Origin: an uncultured euryarchaeote
GTDB lineage: Archaea; Thermoplasmatota; Poseidoniia; Poseidoniales; Poseidoniaceae
Direction of reading: 5' to 3'
DNA length: 64,000 nucleotides
Assembly (NCBI GenBank): GCA_937899865.1
Contig: CALBRH010000055.1
Location: 1 to 64,000, forward strand
In this document: positions 48,290 through 64,000 of the stretch, piece by piece
Position numbering within the stretch: the first letter of the stretch is position 1
Layout of the letters: each line of letters opens with the position of its first letter
Notes under the pieces: model-generated
Database searches by the model: none
What the model was told of the DNA's origin: nothing
The model's input: only the letters and a program-made list of their open reading frames with translations
Position numbers and translations under genes: made by a program

Positions 48290-48955
48290 TTAGTTTAGCC
48301 CTAAATGTGGCTTAAGTTTGAGTAAATTCTTTTCAAAAACAATAGGAACGCCAGCATCTTGGAATGCCGATAAAGATGATTCCCTTGATGGGTTAAAACC
48401 GATGAATCGACTTCCTTCGACCTGCATAGAGAGGTCCATTTCAGAGTCTCCAACAGAAACACAGTCTTTGGCATCAAAACCTTGCATATTGAGTATTTTG
48501 TCAATGATTACGTCTTTTTTACTGGCATGTAGGCGACAAATTCCTTCATCAGAAAGTGTATCATCGTCATTGAACTTGAAACCGTTTGCAATCCAGTCAT
48601 CGACCTTCAGCATTGCTGCTATTGATGAAACAAATAAATCAACACCTGCACTAACTATGGCAACGAATATTCCTGCTTCTTTCAACTCTTGAATCAATTC
48701 TTTAGCACCTGGCATTATCTTGACACCAGAATATGAACGAAATAATTCATCTCGAAAAATCGGATCTTTGATTTCCTTCCACATTTGTATATCTGAACGC
48801 ATGAATTCAACGTCTGTCAATTCACCATTAATGAAACGCTGCAGATTGAGAGAATTATCTGTACCAAAATAATCGTGTAATGTTTTCCAAGAGCTAACTG
48901 AGTCAACAAGAACTCCATCACAATCGAACACTACCACTTTTGGTACATCAACCAT
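48290..48955 (-). CDS. HAD-superfamily hydrolase, phosphoserine phosphatase-like
   Basis: VFDCDGVL (motif I), IVSAG (II), K (III), VGDSEMD (IV). Confidence 0.88.
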   Translation of the reverse strand: MVDVPKVVVFDCDGVLVDSVSSWKTLHDYFGTDNSLNLQRFINGELTDVEFMRSDIQMWKEIKDPIFRDELFRSYSGVKIMPGAKELIQELKEAGIFVAIVSAGVDLFVSSIAAMLKVDDWIANGFKFNDDDTLSDEGICRLHASKKDVIIDKILNMQGFDAKDCVSVGDSEMDLSMQVEGSRFIGFNPSRESSLSAFQDAGVPIVFEKNLLKLKPHLGLN

Positions 48956-49094: not shown

Positions 49095-52000
49095 TCAGAC
49101 TGGTTGGTTCCAAGTTAGACCAGTGTAGGTCTTCAAGACAGCACCTTGTGTATCTCCACTTGGTGAGTAGACGATCCTAACAGTTGCATCAACTAGTTTG
49201 TGACCATCAGCAGTTTGAGTCTTGACGTAGATGTCATCTCCTGTACTAAAGGAAGAGATTGTCTCATCTTCATCAATTGTAACTACATCACCAAAGGTTA
49301 CCAAAGAATCGCTGTTGAACGGAGAGAATCCGTAAACATGGTCTGTGGAAGCAAGGTTAGTTGTTTCTGAAACTATCTGACCACTTGCATCTTCATAGAT
49401 TACTGTTACTTCAACAGCTTGTGTTGCCAATACAGTTTGTGCTTGACCAACGGTAATCTTCCAGTGATCTGTTGCAGCACTACCTGTATCAACATTCTCA
49501 GCTGAGAAAGTCACTCTTGGTACACCCTTAGTATCTGTGTCAGCAAGTTGAGCTGCCCAAACATATACAACACCGGATAGAACAACAGTGATCGCAACCA
49601 TCAAGATAGTTGCAATAACTGGGCTCACAGCAGCATCATCATCTGAAATTTGCTTCTCAACAAATTCTTCTTCATCATCATCTCTGCGTCCAGCAAGGAC
49701 AAGAGCGCTAACAAACAAGCCAGTTAGAGCAACTGCAATGATACTTGGTGCGAATGAAGCAACTGATAGAGCACCGATTGTTGTCACCGTAACTGGTAGA
49801 GCAACATCAGCAGTTTGCCAGTCTTCAGCAAATGCGCCATTGTATCCTTGTTCTGTGTGTTGACATGCGGAAGATTCACTCCATGCAACTTCATTACCGC
49901 CGTTAGTAGACATCATGTTGTTACACCAGTTCTTATCTTCAAATGCTGGTCTTCTGTTAGATTGTTGACCATTAGCATCTTCACCGATTCTACCAGGTTC
50001 AGACCACTTTCCGAATACTTGATTGCTTGAAACAGCATTGTGTGATTCAGGGTTGTCAGTTTGAACTTCGTTAACAGTACAGAGATCAGCTGCATTTGGA
50101 GTACAGGTAACTACATCAACTTCTACCCAAACCTCAGTGGTCATGTCAGTGATGTAAACTTCCCAGTTCTCAATATCCAGTGATTCACCGAATGCAGGTG
50201 GTGTGAAGTATTGTGGTAGTTCAATCTCAGTGTGTCCGTCAGAATGCAGAGATACAACCAATAGATGATCGTATGTGTAGTCACCGTTGTCGCCACCAGC
50301 ATAGATGCTGAAGTCAACAGGTACATATGTTCCAGGCATTACATTATTGACGCCGTTGAAGTCAAATCCTTCATTCTCGTCAAGGTAGTAATCTGGTACA
50401 TTCTCAGCAACGTTGTCAACTTCTACAGACAGAGTTACTGATACAGACTCTTGTTGGTAGTTGTTTGGCGCATAGCCTTGTTGTTCTAACAATTCGTAGT
50501 TAGGCATGTAGCTTGGTGGATTCTCAGAATCTAATAGTGTCAATGTCATCTCACAACGTCCGTTAGCTGTTCTTGTTTGATGAATACCGTTGTTGTTCAG
50601 CATATCAACTTCCCAAGGTTCAGCATTTGTTGTAGCGTCCTTAATCAGAGTGAATTCTAGAATATCACCATTGATTTGAGTTGTGTAGTAGTTAGATGAA
50701 TCACAGGTATTAGTATCTTCTAGAGTCCATGACAGGTCTGCATCTAGATGGTCGATATCGGACTTAATGCTAGATAGATCGAAAGTCAATGCATTTGCAT
50801 CTATTGTATCCTCTACAAGGTCTAATCTGTAGTCGCTAGTTCCTGGAACACCCTGGAAAGAGTTGCTACCATCTGCGGAGTCAACAACTCCTTCAGAAGC
50901 GATTACTGGCACATCATTAACTGGTGCAACAGCGAACTGTACTACTACAGGTGTTGCATCGGTATTTTCAGCACCATCATCAGATAGTGTTAGTGTAATG
51001 TCACAAACACCACCATATTCCCAATTGGTGTTCTCAGTAATGACAATCTCATCGACTCCATTGACATTGGTCTGTAGAGCAACACTGATTTGATCACAAG
51101 TAGCAGTAGCGCCCCATGTGTAAACTTGGTTTACAGGGTATTGCTCATTTGCCATATCTCTGATAAACGAATTCATTGTATCGTTAGCAAGTTTACCTAG
51201 AGGCTTACTGTAACTTGCGAATCCTTCGTCTCTAGAGTTGTATCTTTCACCAGCAGCATCAACGTATAGATATAAATCGCCGTTGTCACAATCTGGGTCT
51301 ACAGAAGTTCTAGCATCACAGATTACAGGTGCATCGTTGATATTCTTTACAGTGTAAGTAATTGTCTTTGCTGCAGTCTGTCCGTGAGTGTCGACAACTT
51401 CGAAAGTCAAATCAAATGTACCGAATTGGTCATTGATCGGAGTTAACGATAGTGTTCCTGTTGTACCAGATACGTCGCTAAAGTCTGTCAGTATGTTTGC
51501 AAATGCATCCATATTGCTTTCAGTGACTTCCCATTCCATGTCTTCTTCAACATCTTGCTCATCATCAACAAATGTCGACAAGTCAAGGTCAAGTTGTGCA
51601 GAGTCTTCGCTAACCAATATGTCATCAAGCGCAGAGGTAATCTCTGGACATGCTCTGAGGATGTTAAAGGATAGAGAAGTGGTTGAATCCATTACAACAT
51701 TTGCTTCAGTATGCCAATCATAGTCACATGTATGTCTGATTTCAGCAGGTGTCTTAGCCATGATATTATAGTTGTGAGGTGTAGTAGGTGGGTTGCCAAA
51801 CTCGAATGAACGATGAAGTAGAACTTCATTAGTCATTGTACCGTCAGATAGATCTAACTTGTTAAGAGCTAATTCGTATGCACTATCAAAGGTTTCAGCA
51901 CCGGTTCCAACAATTGTACCTTGGTCTGGGCTTGCTGAGTTAACATTATCAGTTCCAGCATCTTGAATCGATGCTACGATATTCATTGCATCAACAGAAC

Positions 52001-55000
52001 CACCAATTGAAGCGAGTGGTACACTAACTTCTAGATATTGTCCTTGAGCAGATACTGCACTTGCACCTGGGTCTAATACCCAATTAGGAGCATTGTAGTA
52101 GTAGACATCCACGCCAGCAGAAGTCACGACAATTGCGAAGTCTGCATCATATGGTAGAGTGTGTACATTATTGTATCCGGTTGAACTACCAGCCATATCA
52201 TTGCTGTCTACATAAACGTAGACATCGCTTGCAGATGTGTCAACACTGTCAAATCCTAAGACAAGTGAACCCGAATCTGTTGTCACATACATTGGTCCAC
52301 CAACAAGACCTGGCATAGCATAGCCAGATGGATTTAGAGCATTGCCACCAACCCAATCATCACTATTACCATCTACAACCATTGTTGTAGTGAAAGTTGG
52401 TGATGAATAAGCCGAGTAATCTTCATCCGAGACGATTGATAAACCAACTTGTGCAGTTGGTTCGCCGCCAAGGTGATCTGCATCGATATTCAACCAGTTT
52501 GCCTCATCAACAATTGATGTTGCATCTGTTGAAACCTTAGCCGCATCAAGAGCCCAATCAATAACTGTCAATCGAGTATTGTCACGCGCATCAATCCAAG
52601 TGGTTGAACTTGCTGATTTTGCTGCAGATGCAGGACTGCTTGAACCGCCGGCAGGATCTGTTAATGATTGTACAGTTCCCTTGACATTTTCAGCAATCAT
52701 GATAGTATCAGCGTCAGCCTGACCAGCATCCCATAGAACTTCTGAATTCTTGGCATGGAAACCAACATTGCCAGTTACATCCATTGGATATAGCCAAGCA
52801 TAGTTGCTGTCCTCAACCATCAAACCAGTTCCAGTAGAGCCACCATCGAAAGTAGCACCGATTACTGAAACTTCAATGTCTTCGGTGTGAACACCAATTC
52901 CATTGTCACCAGCAGTGAAGGAAGCATCGCCAGTAATTGTCAAAATACCGCCACCTGTCTTGTGGATACCAGTCTCGAATCCAGACATAGTTGTACCATC
53001 AAGGTTTATGTCGAAGCCGAATGTATTATCATCATCAAATCCAACTGAACCAGACTGATCGCTACCAGTAATGACTGAGTTTTTATCATTCCAAATACAT
53101 CCATCATTAACAATTGCATTCTGTCCGATGTTGATTGTGTTCGCTTCGGTAAGAACCGCATACGACGAAACATCACAATTGGACAGTTGTATTCCAACTC
53201 CAAGCGGATTATTGTTTACGCTATCAAAGGTAATGGTATTATCCTTAATTGTTGGACCAACCCATGAGTTATCCTCTGGCATGGCTTCTTGCCATTGTAG
53301 AGCAGCTTCTCCACAGTAAGAACCACAGAATAGTCTAAATCTCATTTCATATCCTGGATCAAGAGTGACCTTGAGTACATCACTCTCTTGTCCAGAAGTA
53401 AATGGTATAGATGGATAAGCAGAGCTTATACAGTTGATTCTACCAGCCCATGTACCAAATGGTCCACCATAGTTGGTACTACTTGGCGCAGGTGCACCAG
53501 TAGTTGTTACCGCCCATGTACCTGCTGGTGCTACTTGCATACCTATGTTGGTATTACAGTTAGAACCAAATCCGTCACCATATTGGTCAATTCCAACAAA
53601 GTCATATGTTACTGGATCGTTACCTAGATTCTGTAGTAGTACTCCGTCCATAGTGTTAGAGTACGCTGTTGGGTAGTATGGGTTAGACGAATATCCGAGG
53701 TAAGGACCACGGTATCCTGGTCGAGTGTTCTGTATTCCAGCAACTCCAGGATCCCAGTAGTACATTGGGTTTGTATTAGGTCCAGAAGAAGTAGAAGCCC
53801 ATGTTCCAGTTTCACCTTGAACAATTTCGAATCCTCCACCGTTTGGACCATCACCATATGTGTCTAACAGATAGAACACGTATGTTCCTACTTGGTCCAA
53901 AACAATGTTTGGATTTCCGCTGTTCCAAGATTCTTCACCATCTTGTCCGAAGTTACCTGTTGCAGGATCCCAAACAGTCACAGTATTATCAGGTGCTGTG
54001 ATGTAAACTCTCAATTCAGAGGCCCATGTACCTGCGATTAAGCGAATAATCATTTCTTGTCCTACATCGTTTGTTGCATAAACGTCAGGAGAGACACAGG
54101 ATCTCCACCATGTAGGGAATGGACATGGATCACCAAATCCACCCCACTGTACGAATTGACCTGGAACGTTAGGGAAATCAGTGTTCACACCAGCAACAAC
54201 TTCAGTCACGAATTCAGTAGGTTTGGTTAACGAATCAGCAAGGATAGCATATTGACCTGGGTCAGTAATATCGTTACCTTCAACATTGAAATCACCGCCA
54301 ACAGCACTTATTGCAAAGTCTGATTGGTAATTGAAGTCATTATCGTTGATGTTCACTCTTTGAACTCCATCAGTACTTACACCATATGCTCCACCATTGA
54401 ATACGTTGGAGTCAATTAGAGCATTGAAAGATGTGTCGTCTTGGAATCTAACGTGTGAACAAGTTGAACATGTCATTACGTTGTTAGATAATACCATACC
54501 ATTGGTATCAGAATCAGCCCATCCCATGACATTTAGTCCTACAGTATCTACGAAAGTATTGCCATCGATAACAACATTGTTAGAACCAACAACTGTGTGA
54601 GCTGTTGATGATGTTCCATCATAGTATGAATCAATGAATGCTACACTCAGTACACAATTTGCGAATGTATTACCAGAAATTGTCGCTGAATCTATACCAC
54701 CAAGTCTCAAACAGTAGTCAGCATCTGAGAATAATGTAGGAGTAATTCCTAGATCTCTGTAGTAATAGATGAAGCTGTTCTTAACCTCGACAGTTGAAGG
54801 CACGTAAGTATTGAATGAACCGAAACTGGAGGAGTCTCTGTCACCAGTACCAGTTGCAAGACCGATGATGTTGTTGAAAGTTACACCATCAATGTCAAGA
54901 TTCAACGGGTTCTCATTGGTTCCTTGTAGACCACCAATTACCAGACCAACAACATCACCATTTGCAGTCTTAGGGTAAAGTCCGTTGACTTCACCACCAT

Positions 55001-58000
55001 GCATCTTTAGTGTTGTTCCGTATGGGTAATCAGAAATCCATTGTGCGATTCCAGTTCCATATTCAGTAGTATAACCAGTATCGAAAACAATTGCGTTATC
55101 CAATGTGTATGTTACACCATCTCTTAGTTCTAGAGTACCTGAGTCGATCATAATGGCTTTTCCAGACAAGTCCATGGAGGAAGTTCCATCCCACAAACCT
55201 TCGTCATCGCCATATTCTACCATTCCTGTATCATAGGTTCTCGATCCGGATGCTGAGAAAGATGTTCCTGCACACGGTGAAACCATGACATAGTTTGAAT
55301 CTGTACCACATACTCTCACATCAATTTGATCAGTTAAACTGTATTGATCGAAATTTGTCGCAGTAGCCGAATCATATGGTGCGTCTGCCAAGTTAGGCGT
55401 TGCTTGTAAGTAACGGAAATCTCCAGAGTTAGTAGTCGAGTCAGTCCATGAATAATCAACTTCTGCTACGCTTGAAATTTTGTATGTGCTGAAGTAGGCA
55501 GAGTAATCTGTCACTCCGCTTGCATCAACATCATAGATCGAGAATGACAATCCGGATGTTAATCCGTTTGCATCTGTAGATCCTGTTGAAGTTGTAGCAG
55601 CAGCTTGGCTAGACATCACAACATTGGCATCAGCTAGAGGTGTTCCGTCAGCATCAAGTTCGGCGAAATAACTTCTATCTCTGTTGAACTTTCCTGTTGA
55701 ACTTGAACCTATAGTAACTTTACTTTGGTCAACTATACCATCTAAGAACGAGACAGCGCTTGAATCAGCAATTTCAACATCTACTGTATTACTTCCAACA
55801 ATGTCTACATCGTTCATGGATATATCTCCAACTCCCTCAAAGGACATTGCGGTATTGACGTTAGAAATTGACATTGTGTCAACCATGTGGTTAGCGCTAC
55901 TTTGAGATCCAACTCTAAATCCAACATTACCGTTGGAAATAGTTGCGTCAGCTACAAGAGTTTCAACATCATTGTTTAGATATATGGCAGTACCCAATCC
56001 ATTAAAGTTAGAATTGGTTATTTCTTGAATTCCTGCACTTGTAGATGGTGCATAGAATCCATAGTTGTTGTTTGCTCCTAATCCAGAGTCATCTACATCC
56101 ATATTATCCAAATAAACGCTGTTTGTACCAGATGTTCTAACACCGTATTGAACAGGGTCATCGATATCTAGACCGTTGATGTTGGCTAAAGTTCCACCTT
56201 GTAGATCAATTCCTACGTTTGCATCAGTAATTTGTGCGTTATTCAAGATAACACCCTTTCCAATTACTGCTTCGGAATAATCTCCAAATGCTGCTGGGTT
56301 GGAACCAGATCTTGTAAGCAGTTCTACACTATCTCTGTTCATGTTTGCCCAGTGACCAAGCGAACTACCGAGGTATCTGTGCATCATGTCGAATTTCAAC
56401 TCGACCTTCGCAATCGAGGAATCTGTCAAATCAATAGTTGGCCAACTCAAAAGCATGTTCGAACCAATGGTTGTTCTGAAGGTAGGAGACCTTGCATTAC
56501 ATGCTTCATAGTTTGGTGAACCCCATGTTCCAGCCAAACTAGAGCGTGTTTCACCAATTGTTGTGTCATGCCAGTTTCCAAGGTTGGAAATAATGGTTGA
56601 ATAACCGAATGCACCACCTGTTCCCATTCCGTAGCGTCCAGTAATTGGGTCATCGAATCCCCAGTTAAATTCTGGGTAAGAAGATACACTGATTGGTTCA
56701 GGAACGGTTCCTTCAGAAATTCTAAATCCGAATTGTTCAGGATATAATGGAGATGTAGTTACTCCATACAAGTCTCCAATGTTAGGAGTACTAGAGTACC
56801 AATAGTAGTTGTCTAGGCGCTCTCCCCATCTCCATGGATTTGGTGATTCTCCACCATAGTTACAATCCCAGAATGGCGCACCACCGGCTCCTCCAAGGTA
56901 GCTTAATCCACCGTTAGTTACGGCAGGATCATTTTGGCTGTATGGATAATATCCTACATCGTTTTCGTCTTGAATTAGGTATGATGCTCCAGAGTTATCA
57001 GTTACTTCAATTACTAAGTTGTCCATTGTCACATATGGTACGGACCAAGATGTTACACCATAGCCACCTACAGTATATCTGTATGTGTATGTACCACCGT
57101 AATTAATCATCATTGCAGGTTGTAGATAATCTGCTTGCCCAACCCAACTGGTTAGATCAACTGTGTATTCTTCCCACTCGAAACAGCCGAATCTGTGGAA
57201 GAACCAACAGTTATCCATGTTTGGAAGTTCTCTTGCATTAAAACCAGTTCCAATGTTGGATGGGTAATTTTGTGCAAGGCCTTGTAATACCGCACTTGAA
57301 TACATAGTTGGTAGTTTAGGACCATCTTTTGCGACAATTCCATTAGTATTTCCGTTTGATGTGTAGCCATCTAGATTCATTGAACCGCCGTCGGAGTTAA
57401 TTCCTACAGCCATGTTGGATATAGTTAAACCGTCACCAACAACTTCACCACCATTGGTAAGTTCAATACCTACACCTAGGTTTGATGAACCTGCTAAAGT
57501 GGCAGCAGAGGAAACTGTTACCAATCCACCATCGACATCAATCATTGGGTAAGAGTTTGAAGCAACTGCAGTAGCAGTCAAATATGCTCCTCCACCGAGT
57601 TTTAGTTCTGCGCCGCTTGGAACTTCCAATTGTCCGCTCTTTGAAGAATCGAACAATAGGTTACTAATGGTACCAGATTGCATATCCAAAACACCGCCGG
57701 ATTCAATCGCAAGGTCAACTGCATTTAGTAAACCTTCACCGTAAATCTTTGGTATGTCACCAGTTCCTGTATCGGTCATCATAATCAATTTACCACCATT
57801 ACCAATAGTCAAAGTTGGATTGTCTAGTGCATCCTCTCTAAATGTAATTTGTGAACCTTCAAGTACAACAGTACATCCATCGATTAGCAAGTCATCTGCG
57901 AGCACCATTGTAGCACCCTTGAACTCGTAAGTACCATCACCATCTGGATCTGTATTGAGGAAGGTTTCGTTAGTTGCCATCCACGCACAGTCCATGAAAC

Positions 58001-61000
58001 TGACATTGTCAAGTGTCACAGGAGGTGAAACAAGTCTAATGTCAGCATAACTTCCGATTGTGTAAGTACCAAAGTCAGCCAATGGAACTCCAGTTTGTAG
58101 AACTCCATCTTCGAATAGAACTTCAGTAGCAGGGGTACCATCAACCAATGCTGGATTAGCCTGGCCTGCTCCAGCAGACCCACTAGCTCGTACGACATGA
58201 GTGTTGTAAGTTGTTGGCGTGTGATCTCCAGTAATTACTGCAACATCGCTCGCTCTTCCATCGTTTCCAGTTGTTGCTCTGTGAATTACCTTGTTCGGGA
58301 ACAATTCAGCGCCGGTTGAGTCAAGAACAGATGCAGTAATAGTAACTCCTGCCTCTGGTATTTGTTCTGGAAGGCCTGTATTAGCGTCAACTCCCAATCT
58401 GTAGGCAAGTGAATTGGCAAATCCACCATAATAGACTTCTGGGATTGCAGTAGGTTGAACATTGGTATTGCCGTCAATTGATGTGTGACAATCTGTAGTC
58501 TTTCCATTGGAATCTGCACAATCATTACCATTCAAAGTAACATCGATTAAGAATCCATCAGAAGATAGACCGCCAAAATACAGATATGGACCAAATTCAG
58601 ATACTGTTGTACTGGTCACATCTACATCAACAAAGATACCTTCTGTTGCATGCATGTAAATTGCTGAGTCAGAACTACTGTGAGACATTGTAGATGATAC
58701 CATCTGAATAGTACTCGTACCTCCAGGTGTGTTACATTCTGAACTGAGTTGTCCAAGTGCTGAGTTAACAATCTTAATGTTTGCACCACAGCCGAATGAT
58801 CTGTACAGCCCAACATCCATGTTAGTGAACTCTAACATATCATTTGAACCACCAGTAACACCAAGTTCTTGAATTGAGAATTCATTAGCGACGGTGATTT
58901 GATCAGCTGTTCCAGGGAAAGTCCTGTACATTGTCATATCAGGTGCTGTAACTCCGTCAAATACTGAGTTAGCACCCATTGAACCTGGTACGTTGGTTGT
59001 AGCACCACAATATGGATTGATATCGAATCGATGTTGTCCGGTAGGCATGAAACCTGTACCAAGGTCGACATTGGTCAATGAAACCTTACTTGCTGCGCAA
59101 ATCCAACCTTGTGCATAGTTTGGTGCGTTGAAGTTAGTTACTGTAACCTCGGAATTAGCGCCATGACTCAAACCAAGGCTTACACCAGTGTTTTCCCAAG
59201 TCCAACCATTGTTATTCCATCTCCATTGGTCGTTAATGGTAGGCGTAGTTGCAGTTACATCACTAATAGTAATGGTTTGAAGATCTGTTCGAATTAGCGT
59301 AACCTTAGAGTCTACAATGTTTACATACTCCATGGTCAAAGAACCAGAATTACTTCCTGAAACATCAGATGCGATAGCACCTGCCCAATCGTAATTGTTG
59401 GTGTTACATCGAGTCATAGTAGATGGGTTGCCTGCTGTACCTGTTAGTGTAGCAACTGTGTTTTGAGCAAAGTTGAAACAAGAACTTCTTGAGTCAGTAA
59501 TTGCGAAGTTAGACATTGTAACAACTGTTCCTTGTCCGCTACCATGAGCGAATGCAGAATCTACATTTGAGTAAGATACATCAGATAGAGTAAATTCTCC
59601 TACGTCACAATCTTGGGTAGCAGTTCCACATCCTTGGAAACTTGAATCAGCTGGTCTACTACCTGCAGTTATTGCCGCATGGTTAGTATTGCTGATAGAA
59701 ACATGTTGCATTACATGTCTGTCTTCAACAGTTGTACCTGCACAGTCACTAGTAAATGCCAATCCATGCCATAGAGCATTTGAATTGACACTTCTGTCTG
59801 CGTTAAAGGTGATTGGGTCAGTCGAAGTTCCCATTGCTGTGAACTTTGAACATGTACCGTCAGCCTTGACGCCACCATCGAATGAGATACCTTTGTTCTC
59901 TCCGATAATAACTTCAACGCCTGGTTCAATTGTCAAGTCAGCATCAATACTTAGGTAACCGCTTGGATCTGATGGGTTAACCTTAATCGGGCTATCGATT
60001 AGATACCATGTAGTATCATCTGTAATATCTGCAGTAACTGTCTTACCTTGGCCATCGAATGGAAGTGTTCTGAACCATACACCTTGACAGGATGTAGTGC
60101 CAGTTGAGCCACAATAGTCAACTGTTTCACGTGACCAATATGGTGCCATCATGTGCAATTTACCGCTTAGGACGTTGTTTGCGCCGCCACAGGTAGTCCA
60201 GAAGTTTGCACGGAATGCACCTGATGTTGGCCAGCATCCTGTAGAGGAAGATGAACTTTCGATTCTAATGGTGTTTGTACTACCATCATCAACAAAGTGC
60301 AAGAATCCGCTTCCAGTTGCTTGGATTCTGTTAAGAGGATCGCTACCGTCATAAGACTGGCCATAGAACTCAAAGTTAAAGTCGTCTGGTATGTCAAAGT
60401 TTCCTGCACAGTATACGCCATATTGACTCCAATCAGAGTTTGAGTCACATCTGTCGTCATTACTGAATGTGAATGAACTTACAGGCACGGTCTGAGTCGA
60501 TGATACAAGAGGTAGTGGAGTCATTCCAAGTTCGAATGTTTCTACAAGATAGTCTCCAGTATCAGACAGAGTAAATCTCAAGTTGTTAGTATGAGGGTTT
60601 CCGTAAACAAAGTAGTCCCAATTGCCAACTTCCATGAAGTTGCTTCGGTCTTCTCTGATAGCAGTGACGCCTACCTTCTCATTGTTGTAACAGTCCTCGT
60701 CATAATGGAACTCAAACTCATTGGTAACATCATACATGATAACTTGCATGCTACATCCGTCATTGTTAGATGTGTAAGAATTCTCTTTGTACTCAACCCA
60801 TTCAACAATCAATGTGTTGGTAGGATTAGCAACTTCAAAGGTGTAAGTGTCGCCTTGCATAGAGTTAGCAGGAGGCGCTTGTGGGCTTGGTTGAATGTCT
60901 CTTGTTGTCATGTGATAGGAAACGGTATCTCCTCTGGTTAATCCAGTGAATTGATAAGTCCATTCACACTCTGAGTAAGTACAGATATTTCTCTTATCCG

Positions 61001-64000
61001 CATCAGTCTCATAGATGAAAGATGTTGTACCATCTGAGGTTGGAACCAAAGCAGCATCACCAGTTGAGGTTACGACGCCCTGGTCGGAGGTAATTGTATA
61101 GTGAATAGTCGGTCCAACATTTGGTACAGGACTGGTATCTACACCTTGATCTGCATATCGGTTATCGGAAATTGTATAGGTCACAGTTCTATCAAGAGCA
61201 TGTGAATCGCCAATTTGTCCACCAGTAACCAATGGTGCGGAACTATCTGGATCTGGTTCTACATTTCTAATCTGCCAAAGCAGACCGTCGTCACGTATGT
61301 CTTCTCCAGTCTTGGTAGCACCTATTGCAAATCCTTGCCAGCTACCGCCTGCACTTGTTTCAGTTGCATCAGGTGTACAATCTGATGAAGTTTCCATGAA
61401 CATAACGTGCCCTGCTGTTGTTAAACAGATCTTACTGAATTCCCCAGTTCCGGTACCGAATGGCACTCCACCAAATCCTGTGTTTGTTCCAAGTGATGGT
61501 GTATTTGAATCTGCTAGGTCAATCACGAATGATTCAGCAGTGTAGCCATCAGTGTACAAAGAGTTGATGTCGTAAGGAGTGACAGCGCCAGATGGCCATG
61601 CATTTCCAGTGTATGACTCTACTGTCAACTTTGTGTCAGTATAATCTCCATATCCTGGATCGGTAGTAATGAAGTCCCAAGTACCTGCACCCAAGATTCC
61701 ACCGTTAGGAATGTCGTGTAAGTTTTGGTTCATCGTGTTGGAAACGTGAATCGAGTTCGATGATAAGGAACCAAATGTGTAACCCATATTGTAGGAATCA
61801 GTACCTCCATGAGGTACATTGGTTATTTCCATGTTTTGTTCGTAACACCAACTGTAACATTGGTAGATAACTCTCGCAACATCTCCTTGAGGAACTGTGA
61901 CTGTTGCCATTGTTGTTGGCAAGCTATAGTCCCTATTTCGGCCCGAGTCAGCGTATAGAGTGTTGATTGTAATCTGCGGTGTAAACATGTTAGGTGTGTA
62001 GGCTTCTGCAACTACATCCGGCAAACTGGCATCAAGTCTGTTATCGATGTTATCGGAGCGTAAGACAATCGAAGAACCTGTTGCTGCAATAGCCCATTCA
62101 TTGCTATTAGAATCGTAAACCATCATGAAATTTTGAGTTCCGTATCGACTGATATCGAGAATTCCTCCAAATGCAGAGTCGAGTTCAAGGGTGTTAGTTG
62201 GTGCGCCGGTACATCCAGTCGCTCCTGGGTTACAGTCGGTAGCGACTCCTTCCCAGTTGATATCCCAGTGACCCAAAGAATGATCGCCAGATGAATGGAC
62301 ATCGTCGTCCCAGAAACACGTATCGTCGATATTCCAAGATGATGTGTAGAATGAACCACAGTCAGTAAAGTCAAATTCAAAGTAGAATTCTCCACTACCT
62401 GCATAGTAAGTTATCTGTCTATCAAATACATCTTGTGTCTCTTGGTATGAACCGCCTGGTTGATAATCTGGCCCTTTAACATCCTCGAATAAGGCTGTGA
62501 GTTTTTTGCTTGTAGCTTGGTAGACATCTTCAACGGTGAACGTCAAATCAGCAGCACCAACTGCAGGGAAACGACCTGCATTTGGTGACTGTGGTGGAAC
62601 CTTAGAGTTGTCTACTGCTGCAGCATCACTGAAAGTCCAATAATAATCTACAGTTGTTCCAGCATTTATGTCCCCGGTTGTTGCGGAGAAGGTACAAACT
62701 TGATTCTTGGTAGCACATGTAGTTAGCAATGTTGAGTCAACATCAGTATATGAGTTGCCGCCATCAGTGCTGTACCACAATTTTGGACCACCAACAGCAG
62801 TTGTATCTACTGGGTTTCTAGCATCCATGATTGATAGGAATAGAGTTCTTGAGCCTTCAACATATGATGTAACACCAGTGTAGTGTCCATCGTATTCAAC
62901 TGTTGGTGCAACGTCATCTGGTGTGTTATCTTCAAGTTCTACAATTAGGTAGAAGTTGGAGAAATCTGCACCACCGTCCCAATTATTGGTGTTTGCACCG
63001 CCAATTGAGTTAAGGGCATTAGGGAATCCGACACCAAATTCGATGTAGCCGCCGTTTGCAGCATTATTGTATACGTCTGCAAACATTGCCATAGTTCCAG
63101 AAGAACATGCTGTAACACTGCCACAAATCGAAACTGTTTGAGGTGTGTTAAGACTTATGTCAATTGGCATTCTAGCTATCTGTTCAGAACTAATCAATGA
63201 GTTTAGTCTCTGAAGAGATGGTGATGCTAGAACAACACCTGATGAGCCACCGGCTGTATCGAATCTTACTTCTCCTCCGGAGCCTGGCCCAGAGCCATCT
63301 CCTGCAGTATCCCAAACCAATGCCTCATAGTTTCCAGGAGTTTGGATGAACACACTGTCTTCAGAGGTATAATCGGTTGCAGCGGTACAAGGTGGTGTTG
63401 AAGCAGGGTTGAAACTGCATAAATCCCAGTAGTTAGTCCATCCAGTTGTACCAGCTTGGCGGTAGTAAATCTCTGTGTGATCTGCATCACCAGGATTAGA
63501 ACCTGTCCTGTACATGAAATATGCTTCTTGTCCGGTCAGTACTGTGAAAGTTGTATCTGCAGGTTCGCTACCTGTCGGTGAACCTCCTGCACCAGGACCT
63601 ATTGCTGGAAGTACTGGAGGAGCAGGTGCTTGCTTTACAGTTGCGGAGTTTTCACTTGGCCAGCAACCTGAGGTTGGACAGTTGTAAGCAATTCTCATCT
63701 CATCTCCAGCATTTACTGTGAAGTATCTTGGAACCTCATATCCGTCATCTTCAGCATCGTGAGCAGCACCGGTAAAATCTCCAACGGTAACTAAGTCTGT
63801 CCATGCTGCATTAGATGCACCAATTGTTCTTGTTTGGAAATAAACTGCTGCGTTAGAGTTAAGTCCATCACCGTAAGAATCGGTTACGATGTATTCATAA
63901 CTACCAGCATCAAAAATTCCATTGCTCTCAAACGATGATGATCCGCTAACGAAATCAACTGAGCTTCCATCGCATGTAGTCATATCAGAGGTCATTGAAT
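49095..64000 (-). CDS. Giant adhesin-like surface protein (>=4966 aa, 5' end outside the window) with a C-terminal TM helix and a fused archaeal type IV pilin domain
   Basis: One open frame; the codon upstream of the track's ATG (63995) is TCA and no signal peptide is present, so the true start is beyond base 64000. Contains D[ST]YGDG modules, NIDO-like segments, beta-helix repeats, a CBM9/DOMON-like domain, cadherin-like repeats, a TM helix and [29 protein letters not shown]. Confidence 0.9.
   Translation of the reverse strand, partial: [4967 protein letters not shown]
49098..49628 (-). other. Archaeal type IV pilin/archaellin-like domain (177 aa) embedded at the C-terminus of the giant ORF
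   Basis: [25 protein letters not shown] matches the conserved hydrophobic N-terminus of archaeal pilins (compare DDA|[20 protein letters not shown]), followed by a ~150-aa beta-rich globular domain. Confidence 0.85.

Follow-up and report, generated by a model that had tools for sequence, protein, structure and literature searches.

A giant surface protein of Marine Group II archaea ends in an internal type IV pilin module

The window analyzed in this study is a 64,000-nucleotide stretch of DNA (positions 1 to 64,000 of contig CALBRH010000055.1, GenBank assembly GCA_937899865.1) from an uncultured archaeon of the family Poseidoniaceae, and it contains a large part of the minus-strand gene of a giant surface protein. 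We found that this protein ends in a whole type IV pilin module, which lies in the same reading frame behind a transmembrane helix (TM1) and a short loop, and that this arrangement is a real feature of the gene and is conserved across Marine Group II (MGII; Candidatus Poseidoniales). The pilin module begins at an internal candidate site for a class III signal peptidase. Based on alignments and structural models, we propose that the protein may be cut there into a giant adhesin and a small pilin that would remain docked to each other and engage the pilus system of the cell.

The reading frame and its C-terminal pilin module

The genome under study (2.0 Mb, 91% complete) is distributed over 65 contigs, labeled C1 to C65, and the giant gene is located on C55. 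Its open reading frame (ORF) occupies positions 49095 to 64000 of the window on the minus strand, with a TGA stop codon at 49095-49097. Translation of 49098-63998 shows no stop, and the frame continues past the window edge, remaining open to C55:65643. The gene reaches C55:65639, and the product is 5,514 amino acids (aa) long, or about 590 kDa if uncut. The N-terminus reads MKELRNRNVKSVFGG... (also written MKELRNRNVKSVFGGIGIASLL...) and is a Sec-type signal. A hydropathy scan of the entire protein detected three hydrophobic segments only, namely, residues 11 to 29, TM1 (residues 5299 to 5317), and the pilin helix (residues 5341 to 5359). The ectodomain gave only sub-threshold matches in Pfam (CBM_56, PKD, and Cadherin_5).

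The C-terminal 216 residues, all encoded on the minus strand, consist of an S-F-A-P motif (49746-49757), directly followed by the stop-transfer helix TM1 (SIIAVALTGLFVSALVLAG, 49689-49745), a 20-aa cytoplasmic loop (RRDDDEEEFVEKQISDDDAA, 49629-49688) with an Arg-Arg pair adjoining TM1 and an otherwise acidic sequence ending in DDAA, the type IV pilin N-terminal helix (VSPVIATILMVAITVVLSGVVYVWA, 49554-49628), and about 140 further residues that include the globular beta-sandwich of the pilin (49098-49529). The junction thus reads ...SFAPSIIAVALTGLFVSALVLAG-RRDDDEEEFVEKQISDDDAA-VSPVIATILMVAITVVLSGVVYVWA... up to the stop. A preliminary description of this DNA, made from the sequence alone, had placed TM1, loop, pilin helix, and globular domain in one unbroken frame, and the stop-free translation bears this out. 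It had also stated that the loop lacks any start codon: indeed, none of the 20 in-frame loop codons is ATG, GTG, or TTG, and the only GTG (49626-49628) encodes the Val at position +1 of the candidate cleavage site. This site, Ala(-1)/Val(+1), is encoded by GCT GTG at 49626-49631, the stretch across it being QISDDDAAVSPVIA, and in the predicted topology it lies on the cytoplasmic face of the membrane, as proposed earlier. The signal is internal, as claimed, but it is not situated about 4,800 residues into the protein, a position that was underestimated because the window cuts the gene. The candidate site follows residue 5,337, and the pilin motif starts at residue 5,338 of 5,514, leaving a pilin part of 177 aa. 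In all orthologs, as in this protein, the motif is preceded by a Sec signal, the ectodomain, TM1, and the 20-aa loop.

The identification of the module as a pilin is supported by sequence and by fold. It scored 34.5 to 35 bits with Pfam Pilin_N (PF07790; cutoff, 25.2) and 36 to 38.5 bits with TIGR02537 (cutoff, 20), in agreement with the class III-type pilin signal that had been recognized behind a transmembrane helix and an acidic loop. An AlphaFold2 (AF2) model of the TM1-loop-pilin segment, built on 20 orthologs (mean predicted local distance difference test [pLDDT], 70), showed helix TM1, the loop, a second helix (63-89), and then a beta-sandwich. The best match of this model in the PDB, obtained with Foldseek, was the Haloferax volcanii type IV pilus (8fj5_A; E, 1.2e-5), and the other matches included several archaellins, the Cuniculiplasma filament, Natrinema PilA, and the soluble domain of FlaF (4p94). 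The earlier expectation that the C-terminal domain would model as a pilin was therefore confirmed. A phmmer search with the globular domain alone found no free pilin except for one weak match, P0137. Profile comparison (hhalign) aligned it with the globular domains of free pilins over 95 columns (probability, 91.5%; E, 8.5e-7). Since the globular domain also matches those of free pilins, helix and head together represent a whole pilin and not an isolated helix. In an exhaustive HMMER search, every strong full-length match was the C-terminus of a long protein or a fragment of one, and the weaker matches were free pilins of 150 to 200 aa. This pattern fits an ancient event in which a pilin gene was fused to the end of a gene for a giant anchored by a transmembrane helix. 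Annotation pipelines label the orthologs [quoted passage not shown] or "flagellin-like," and IMG names them "FlaG/FlaF family flagellin."

Continuity and conservation of the junction

The unusual layout could be an artifact if a misassembly, a frameshift, or a lost stop had joined the giant gene to a separate downstream pilin gene in a single assembly. The fragmentation of the assembly into 65 contigs favors this explanation, and so does the recurrence of the pilin helix elsewhere in the genome, which contains five ordinary Pilin_N genes with short N-terminal leaders ending in Glu, Lys, or Asp followed by Ala and then VSPVIAT.... Because of these five paralogs, a repeat-driven chimera had to be considered. 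However, the paralogous helices share only 73 to 82% nucleotide identity, so there is no long identical repeat that could have led to misjoining.

The same in-frame junction was present in more than 160 other, independently assembled genomes. For the comparisons, we labeled the genera of the relatives g1 to g14 and their families with f numbers. Within the genus, 34 of the 36 genomes had an unbroken TM1-loop-pilin junction in open frames of 4,500 to 5,500 aa, and other families of the order had it too. A search with a profile of the junction retrieved it from 130/140 Poseidoniaceae genomes, from six genera of the sister family Thalassarchaeaceae, and from family f2. The family-wide and sister-family searches revealed no split form with a stop between TM1 and the pilin. 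An internal TGA suspected in genus g14 (four entries with one TGA inside) proved to be the genuine stop that ends the protein.

The junction is also bridged by contigs from RNA libraries of another study. Record 10 of metatranscriptome contig set X4 spans 49538-50057 with no differences, and together with X5 record 17 (49384-49679) and X6 record 20 (49384-49667), it tiles 49384-50057 with no reported insertions or deletions; metatranscriptome libraries can contain DNA, so these contigs support the continuity of the sequence but fall short of proving a single transcript. The contigs assembled from DNA run X3 have a gap at 49606-49829, which has no bearing either way. The interval 49600-49760, where the preliminary description wanted continuity confirmed, is thus crossed without differences, and the stop or separate start in relatives that it had named as counterevidence did not appear, the layout being unbroken in the family genomes counted above. 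Together, these results refute the artifact, whose probability we consider practically nil.

We then examined how the parts of the junction have been conserved. The ortholog alignment comprised 20 sequences with identities down to 35%, and a second set of 22 representatives brought the number of fused sequences to 42. The sequence A/VSPVIATIL was invariant in 20/20 orthologs, as were the S, F, and P that precede TM1. Mean pairwise identity reached 93% in the pilin helix, with 18 of 25 columns invariant, in contrast to 53% in TM1 (2/18 columns), 54% in the loop (1/20), and 44% in the globular domain (7/140). The pilin helix is therefore held as tightly as in true pilins, whereas TM1 drifts like an ordinary anchor. 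Between paralogs, 9 to 19 of the approximately 25 codons for identical helix residues differed synonymously. As synonymous sites have diverged, the identity of the helix reflects selection, and this divergence rules out gene conversion or a repeat-driven chimera as its source. On the cytoplasmic side of the candidate site, Ala occupied position -1 in all 42 fused sequences, and the representatives had Asp at -4 in 22/22 cases and Asp or Glu at -3 in 21/22 cases.

Predicted docking, proposed processing, and a possible link to pili

The search of representative sequences also recovered short paralogs of the C-terminal end of the giant (P0030, P0036, P0037, P0038, and P0042; loci L063 to L068 and L096 to L098), which are 416 to 707 aa long and have a Sec signal. 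In these proteins, the last ectodomain of the giant (RRPxLED.NWCNN ... LPNVV) connects to the same beta-sandwich through an acidic linker some 20 aa long. The short paralogs lack TM1, the loop, and the pilin helix and have gained a new C-terminal transmembrane anchor. When used as queries against relatives, these hairpin-less sequences matched only giants, as two pieces flanking the hairpin. Genuine short forms occurred in 4/140 Poseidoniaceae genomes, all four of which also carry the giant, and thus they look like derived partial duplicates. We also considered that hairpin-less forms replace the giant in genera without pili, but none was found in those genera.

The direct joining of the two domains in the paralogs led us to suspect that they contact each other in the giant. 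The last extracellular domain (RRPxxED.NWCNN ... LPxVV.TIGA) is encoded at 49764-50453, minus strand, and was delimited by alignment, by complex prediction, and by homology to residues 81 to 285 of P0037. A complex prediction of this domain with the pilin beta-sandwich gave a score of 0.83, a value reached by 58/80 solved complexes and 2/110 mismatched pairs, against 0.00 for the best of three controls. The runs agreed in at least 90% of contacts, and the pLDDT of the partner was 91. The predicted interface is formed by the most conserved residues of both domains: LATQA, VYGFxPxNS, and ISSF on the pilin side and G..N.MPGTYVP and the strand VTVTTIGAL, eight residues before TM1, on the side of the giant. 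The pilin beta-sandwich is thus predicted to dock on the last ectodomain, a model with which the natural hairpin-deletion paralogs are consistent. Given this predicted contact, giant and pilin would probably stay together if the chain were cut, which favors an adaptor role over a freely released pilin.

A prepilin peptidase and pilus genes, which the preliminary description had suggested looking for, are encoded in the genome. A search with PF01478 (Peptidase_A24) yielded no match here, and in relatives all matches were below threshold. Through these weak matches, we identified a conserved protein (about 340 aa) that contains both Asp motifs and whose ortholog in this genome is a divergent, FlaK-like A24 peptidase of 331 aa at C47:16569-17564 (motifs AAWMDHKERRV and HGGADAK). 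This protein scored 31.3 bits with the Pfam C-terminal model Arc_PepC_II (cutoff, 29.9), and its best PDB sequence match was the preflagellin peptidase FlaK (3s0x; E, 5.7e-7), the alignment spanning the GGGD/GGAD motif. It rules out the absence of a prepilin peptidase that the empty PF01478 search had suggested. As the enzyme is too divergent for PF01478, automated surveys could wrongly score MGII as lacking a prepilin peptidase. Two pilus-type systems with ATPase and platform genes are present on C1 and C63, and an archaellum locus is present on C25, where ATPase and platform genes are found as well.

We compared the distribution of these genes in 61 relatives. The giant, Pilin_N pilins, the C1-type ATPase (at least 81% identity), and the C63-type ATPase (about 413 aa) were all found in g1, g2, g3, g4, g9, g11, and g12, and none of the four was found in the 14 genomes of g5 to g8 and g10, which are 89 to 97% complete. 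In contrast, the archaellum-type (ArlI-type) ATPase was present in g10, which lacks the giant, and was not found in g3, g4, and g12, which carry it. The giant therefore tracks pili, and not the archaellum.

From these elements, we propose the following sequence of events. According to standard rules of membrane insertion, the Sec signal would export the ectodomain, TM1 would stop transfer with Arg-Arg on the inside, and the pilin helix would reinsert N-in/C-out, with the A/V site facing the cytoplasm as in every prepilin. The beta-sandwich would emerge outside and fold back on the base of the giant, and the FlaK/PibD-type A24 peptidase of the cell would cut the loop behind the invariant Ala. 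Each translated chain would thereby give one giant anchored by TM1 and one mature pilin of 177 aa, that is, equal numbers of both (1:1), already docked to each other. The freed pilin helix could then engage the type IV pilus machinery or a filament as a minor or priming pilin and couple the giant adhesin to pili. Cleavage is favored because positions -1, -3, and -4 are conserved, the helix is of pilin grade, the peptidase is encoded, and the giant co-occurs with pili. Taken alone, cleavage after the invariant Ala appears to us evenly balanced. The reading as a whole, a cleaved and docked giant-pilin pair that engages the pilus system, falls just short of an even chance, and its most specific form, in which the pilin remains docked at the base of the giant and, as a priming or tip subunit, would attach this adhesin of 5,300 residues to a type IV pilus, is advanced tentatively.

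Several points weigh against this proposal. A review of archaeal class III signals gives -2, -1, and +1 as the key positions for cleavage (PMC3387779). The site has the expected residues at -1 and +1 but departs from the usual charged residue at -2. The latter position is Ala in this protein and variable among fused proteins, being charged in only 4/22 representatives and 5/20 orthologs, so that the caveat raised earlier about this residue holds and extends to the orthologs. In the free pilins of the family, -1 is Ala, Gly, or Ser, and -2 is charged in 87/96 sequences; of the nine with an uncharged -2, eight have an acidic -3, which suggests that the free pilins of this lineage tolerate an uncharged -2 to some extent. 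The docking is a model built on our own alignments, in which two parts of one polypeptide were treated as separate partners. No pilus gene adjoins the giant, the loci on C1, C63, and C25 all lying away from it. The co-occurrence is by genus, and since the genera are related, it may reflect one or two losses in streamlined genera. Cleavage and filament entry are both inferred. Characterized class III signals are all N-terminal, and we know of no peptidase that accepts a leader tethered by a transmembrane helix. Finally, TM1 would still hold the giant in the membrane after the cut, which makes the route of a docked pilin into a filament puzzling.

The main rival explanation is that the loop is never cut and that the pilin-like helix and the beta-sandwich form a permanent second anchor, which would bind pilins or the pilus platform sideways or clamp the base of the giant. 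ArlF and ArlG (FlaF/FlaG), which have an archaellin-like N-terminal helix and a beta-sandwich and are envelope-anchoring parts, not filament subunits, serve as its model. Like them, the module would combine a pilin/archaellin-like helix with a beta-sandwich that binds an envelope component at the membrane, and the fold match to FlaF 4p94 and the IMG label of the orthologs point the same way. Most fused proteins have an uncharged -2, in contrast to the charged -2 of free pilins, perhaps because selection for cutting has become weaker. The predicted binding partner of the beta-sandwich is an ectodomain of the giant itself, and in the hairpin-less paralogs, the beta-sandwich is an ordinary ectodomain, with neither helix nor cleavage. 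In addition, TM1 would hold the giant in the membrane in any case. Yet an uncut handle has no obvious need for an invariant Ala(-1), an invariant Asp(-4), and an acidic -3 on the cytoplasmic side, or for 18 invariant residues out of 25 in the helix while TM1 drifts. Moreover, unlike ArlF and ArlG, the module scores as Pilin_N and is encoded outside the archaellum operon, and the giant occurs in three genera in which no ArlI-type ATPase was found. We regard an uncut handle as rather unlikely, though it is the strongest of the rivals.

Alternatively, the module might have no working link to pili: an old pilin fusion would now act only as a second anchor and a base domain, and the partner machine, if any, would be the neighboring conserved MacB/FtsX-type ATP-binding cassette (ABC) system. 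This possibility draws on the lack of pilus genes near the giant, on the conserved same-strand set of ABC ATPase, MacB/FtsX-like permease, and surface protein upstream, and on the hairpin-less paralogs, in which the two domains function in the absence of a pilin helix; genome streamlining might have produced the co-loss with pili incidentally. Against it stand a helix that is almost letter-identical to those of true pilins across an order although synonymous sites have diverged, the conserved flank of the cleavage site, and a genus distribution that matches those of pilins and pilus ATPases exactly in the genomes searched. We consider such a plain two-helix anchor improbable.

Comparison with known systems and genomic surroundings

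By sequence and fold, the module belongs to the Pilin_N family, but it departs from the positional definition of its signal and from the usual rule at -2. It falls into the same hidden Markov model families (PF07790 and TIGR02537) as the archaeal adhesion pilins (Pilin_N/DUF1628), such as the PibD substrates PilA1 to PilA6 of H. volcanii, and shares with them the small residue, the VSPVI... motif, the hydrophobic helix, and the beta-sandwich; their structure, 8fj5, is also the best structural match. In adhesion pilins, the signal is found at the extreme N-terminus behind a leader of about 10 to 30 aa, whereas 5,337 residues precede it here. The giant further differs from them in its usually uncharged -2 and in a globular domain that is conserved and predicted to bind the preceding domain.

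With respect to function, the closest analogs would be modular pilins and PilY1-type tip adhesins, with the parts reversed and a membrane hairpin added. Modular type IV pilins, such as PilB and PilC of Streptococcus sanguinis, consist of a pilin module with grafted adhesin modules. Like the giant, they combine a pilin module and large adhesive modules in one polypeptide, but the adhesin follows the pilin and needs no extra membrane passage. In the giant, the order is reversed, which is why the TM1-loop hairpin is required, and cleavage would separate the parts. Three ordinary modular pilins with the usual pilin-first order are encoded in the same genome at C65:32912-36160, on C28 (508-aa frame), and at C60:663-2159 (frames of about 1,080, 510, and 500 aa, respectively); they have an N-terminal class III signal, the same helix, and ectodomains of about 450 to 1,050 aa.

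Bacterial type IV pili carry a tip complex of PilY1 and minor pilins, and type II secretion systems have a GspK-I-J tip. In the model that we favor, the giant would resemble PilY1 as a large nonpilin adhesin held on the pilus by noncovalent docking to a minor pilin. However, PilY1 and GspK-I-J are encoded by separate genes and the adhesin has no membrane anchor, whereas the giant forms one chain with the pilin and keeps TM1; we found no sequence relationship between the systems. Class III signals also serve to place small solute binders, which are nonfilament surface proteins, by means of pilus-like machinery, but those signals are N-terminal.

The S-F-A-P motif, TM1, and Arg-Arg could be taken for a PGF-CTERM/archaeosortase-type signal, an assignment that we dropped because 197 residues follow TM1, whereas such a signal sits at the very C-terminus. 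Only two anchors in the genome are loosely similar to this combination. A true PGF-CTERM end occurs elsewhere, in a 1,049-aa open frame at C3:5902-9051 that ends in ...PGFGAIAGIVALLGAALLARRD.

Our literature search retrieved no paper describing the giant-TM1-loop-pilin layout and none linking MGII with pilins. A term search of a 2026 survey of archaeal type IV filament systems (PMC13705601) gave no relevant passage on fused, internal, or giant forms or on Poseidoniales. By definition, class III signal peptides are N-terminal. An internal one, retained since the origin of an order, would broaden the range of substrates ascribed to prepilin peptidases and would escape prediction tools such as FlaFind. 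If the cut and the role as a tip or priming pilin were real, the giant would be the first known polyprotein of an adhesin and a pilin, and its site the first internal one for prepilin processing, in one of the most abundant archaeal lineages of the ocean, and the predicted docking of a pilin globular domain on the base of an adhesin would be a new way to couple an adhesin to a type IV filament. MGII archaea, which are uncultured, rank among the most common archaea in the surface ocean, and their ecology, as inferred, centers on attachment to particles and algae. As the largest conserved MGII surface protein, and the only one that carries its own connection to pilin biology, the giant offers a concrete and testable handle on this attachment.

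Upstream of the giant on the same strand, beyond the high end of the window (C55:65868-74524; L056:1868-10524), lies a set of three genes for a 1,026-aa PKD-containing surface protein with a transmembrane anchor, a 1,529-aa MacB/FtsX-like permease, the extracytoplasmic part of which is very large, and an ABC ATPase. In five other genera, belonging to three families, the permease likewise neighbors the giant upstream on the same strand. The set looks like a conserved cluster and may represent an ABC machine dedicated to these surface proteins. On its downstream side, the giant is directly followed in the window by a HAD-family hydrolase gene (48290-48955, minus strand). In genus g14, the protein that comes after the giant shares the N-terminal DxDGV motif of this hydrolase, so that the downstream neighbor is conserved too.

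The genome has more than 60 open frames of at least 1,000 aa, many of which encode surface proteins. One of these frames, at C62:11958-36977, is larger than that of the giant (8,339 aa) and ends in a C-terminal transmembrane anchor. Many large membrane-anchored surface proteins, for example, those at C51:58230-61784, C25:36320-39904, C39:6539-10147, and C47:9211-12738, terminate in a cytoplasmic tail with the motif LP.GWT[IM]EQW.YYG..[WY]L, which appears to be a shared intracellular C-terminal domain.

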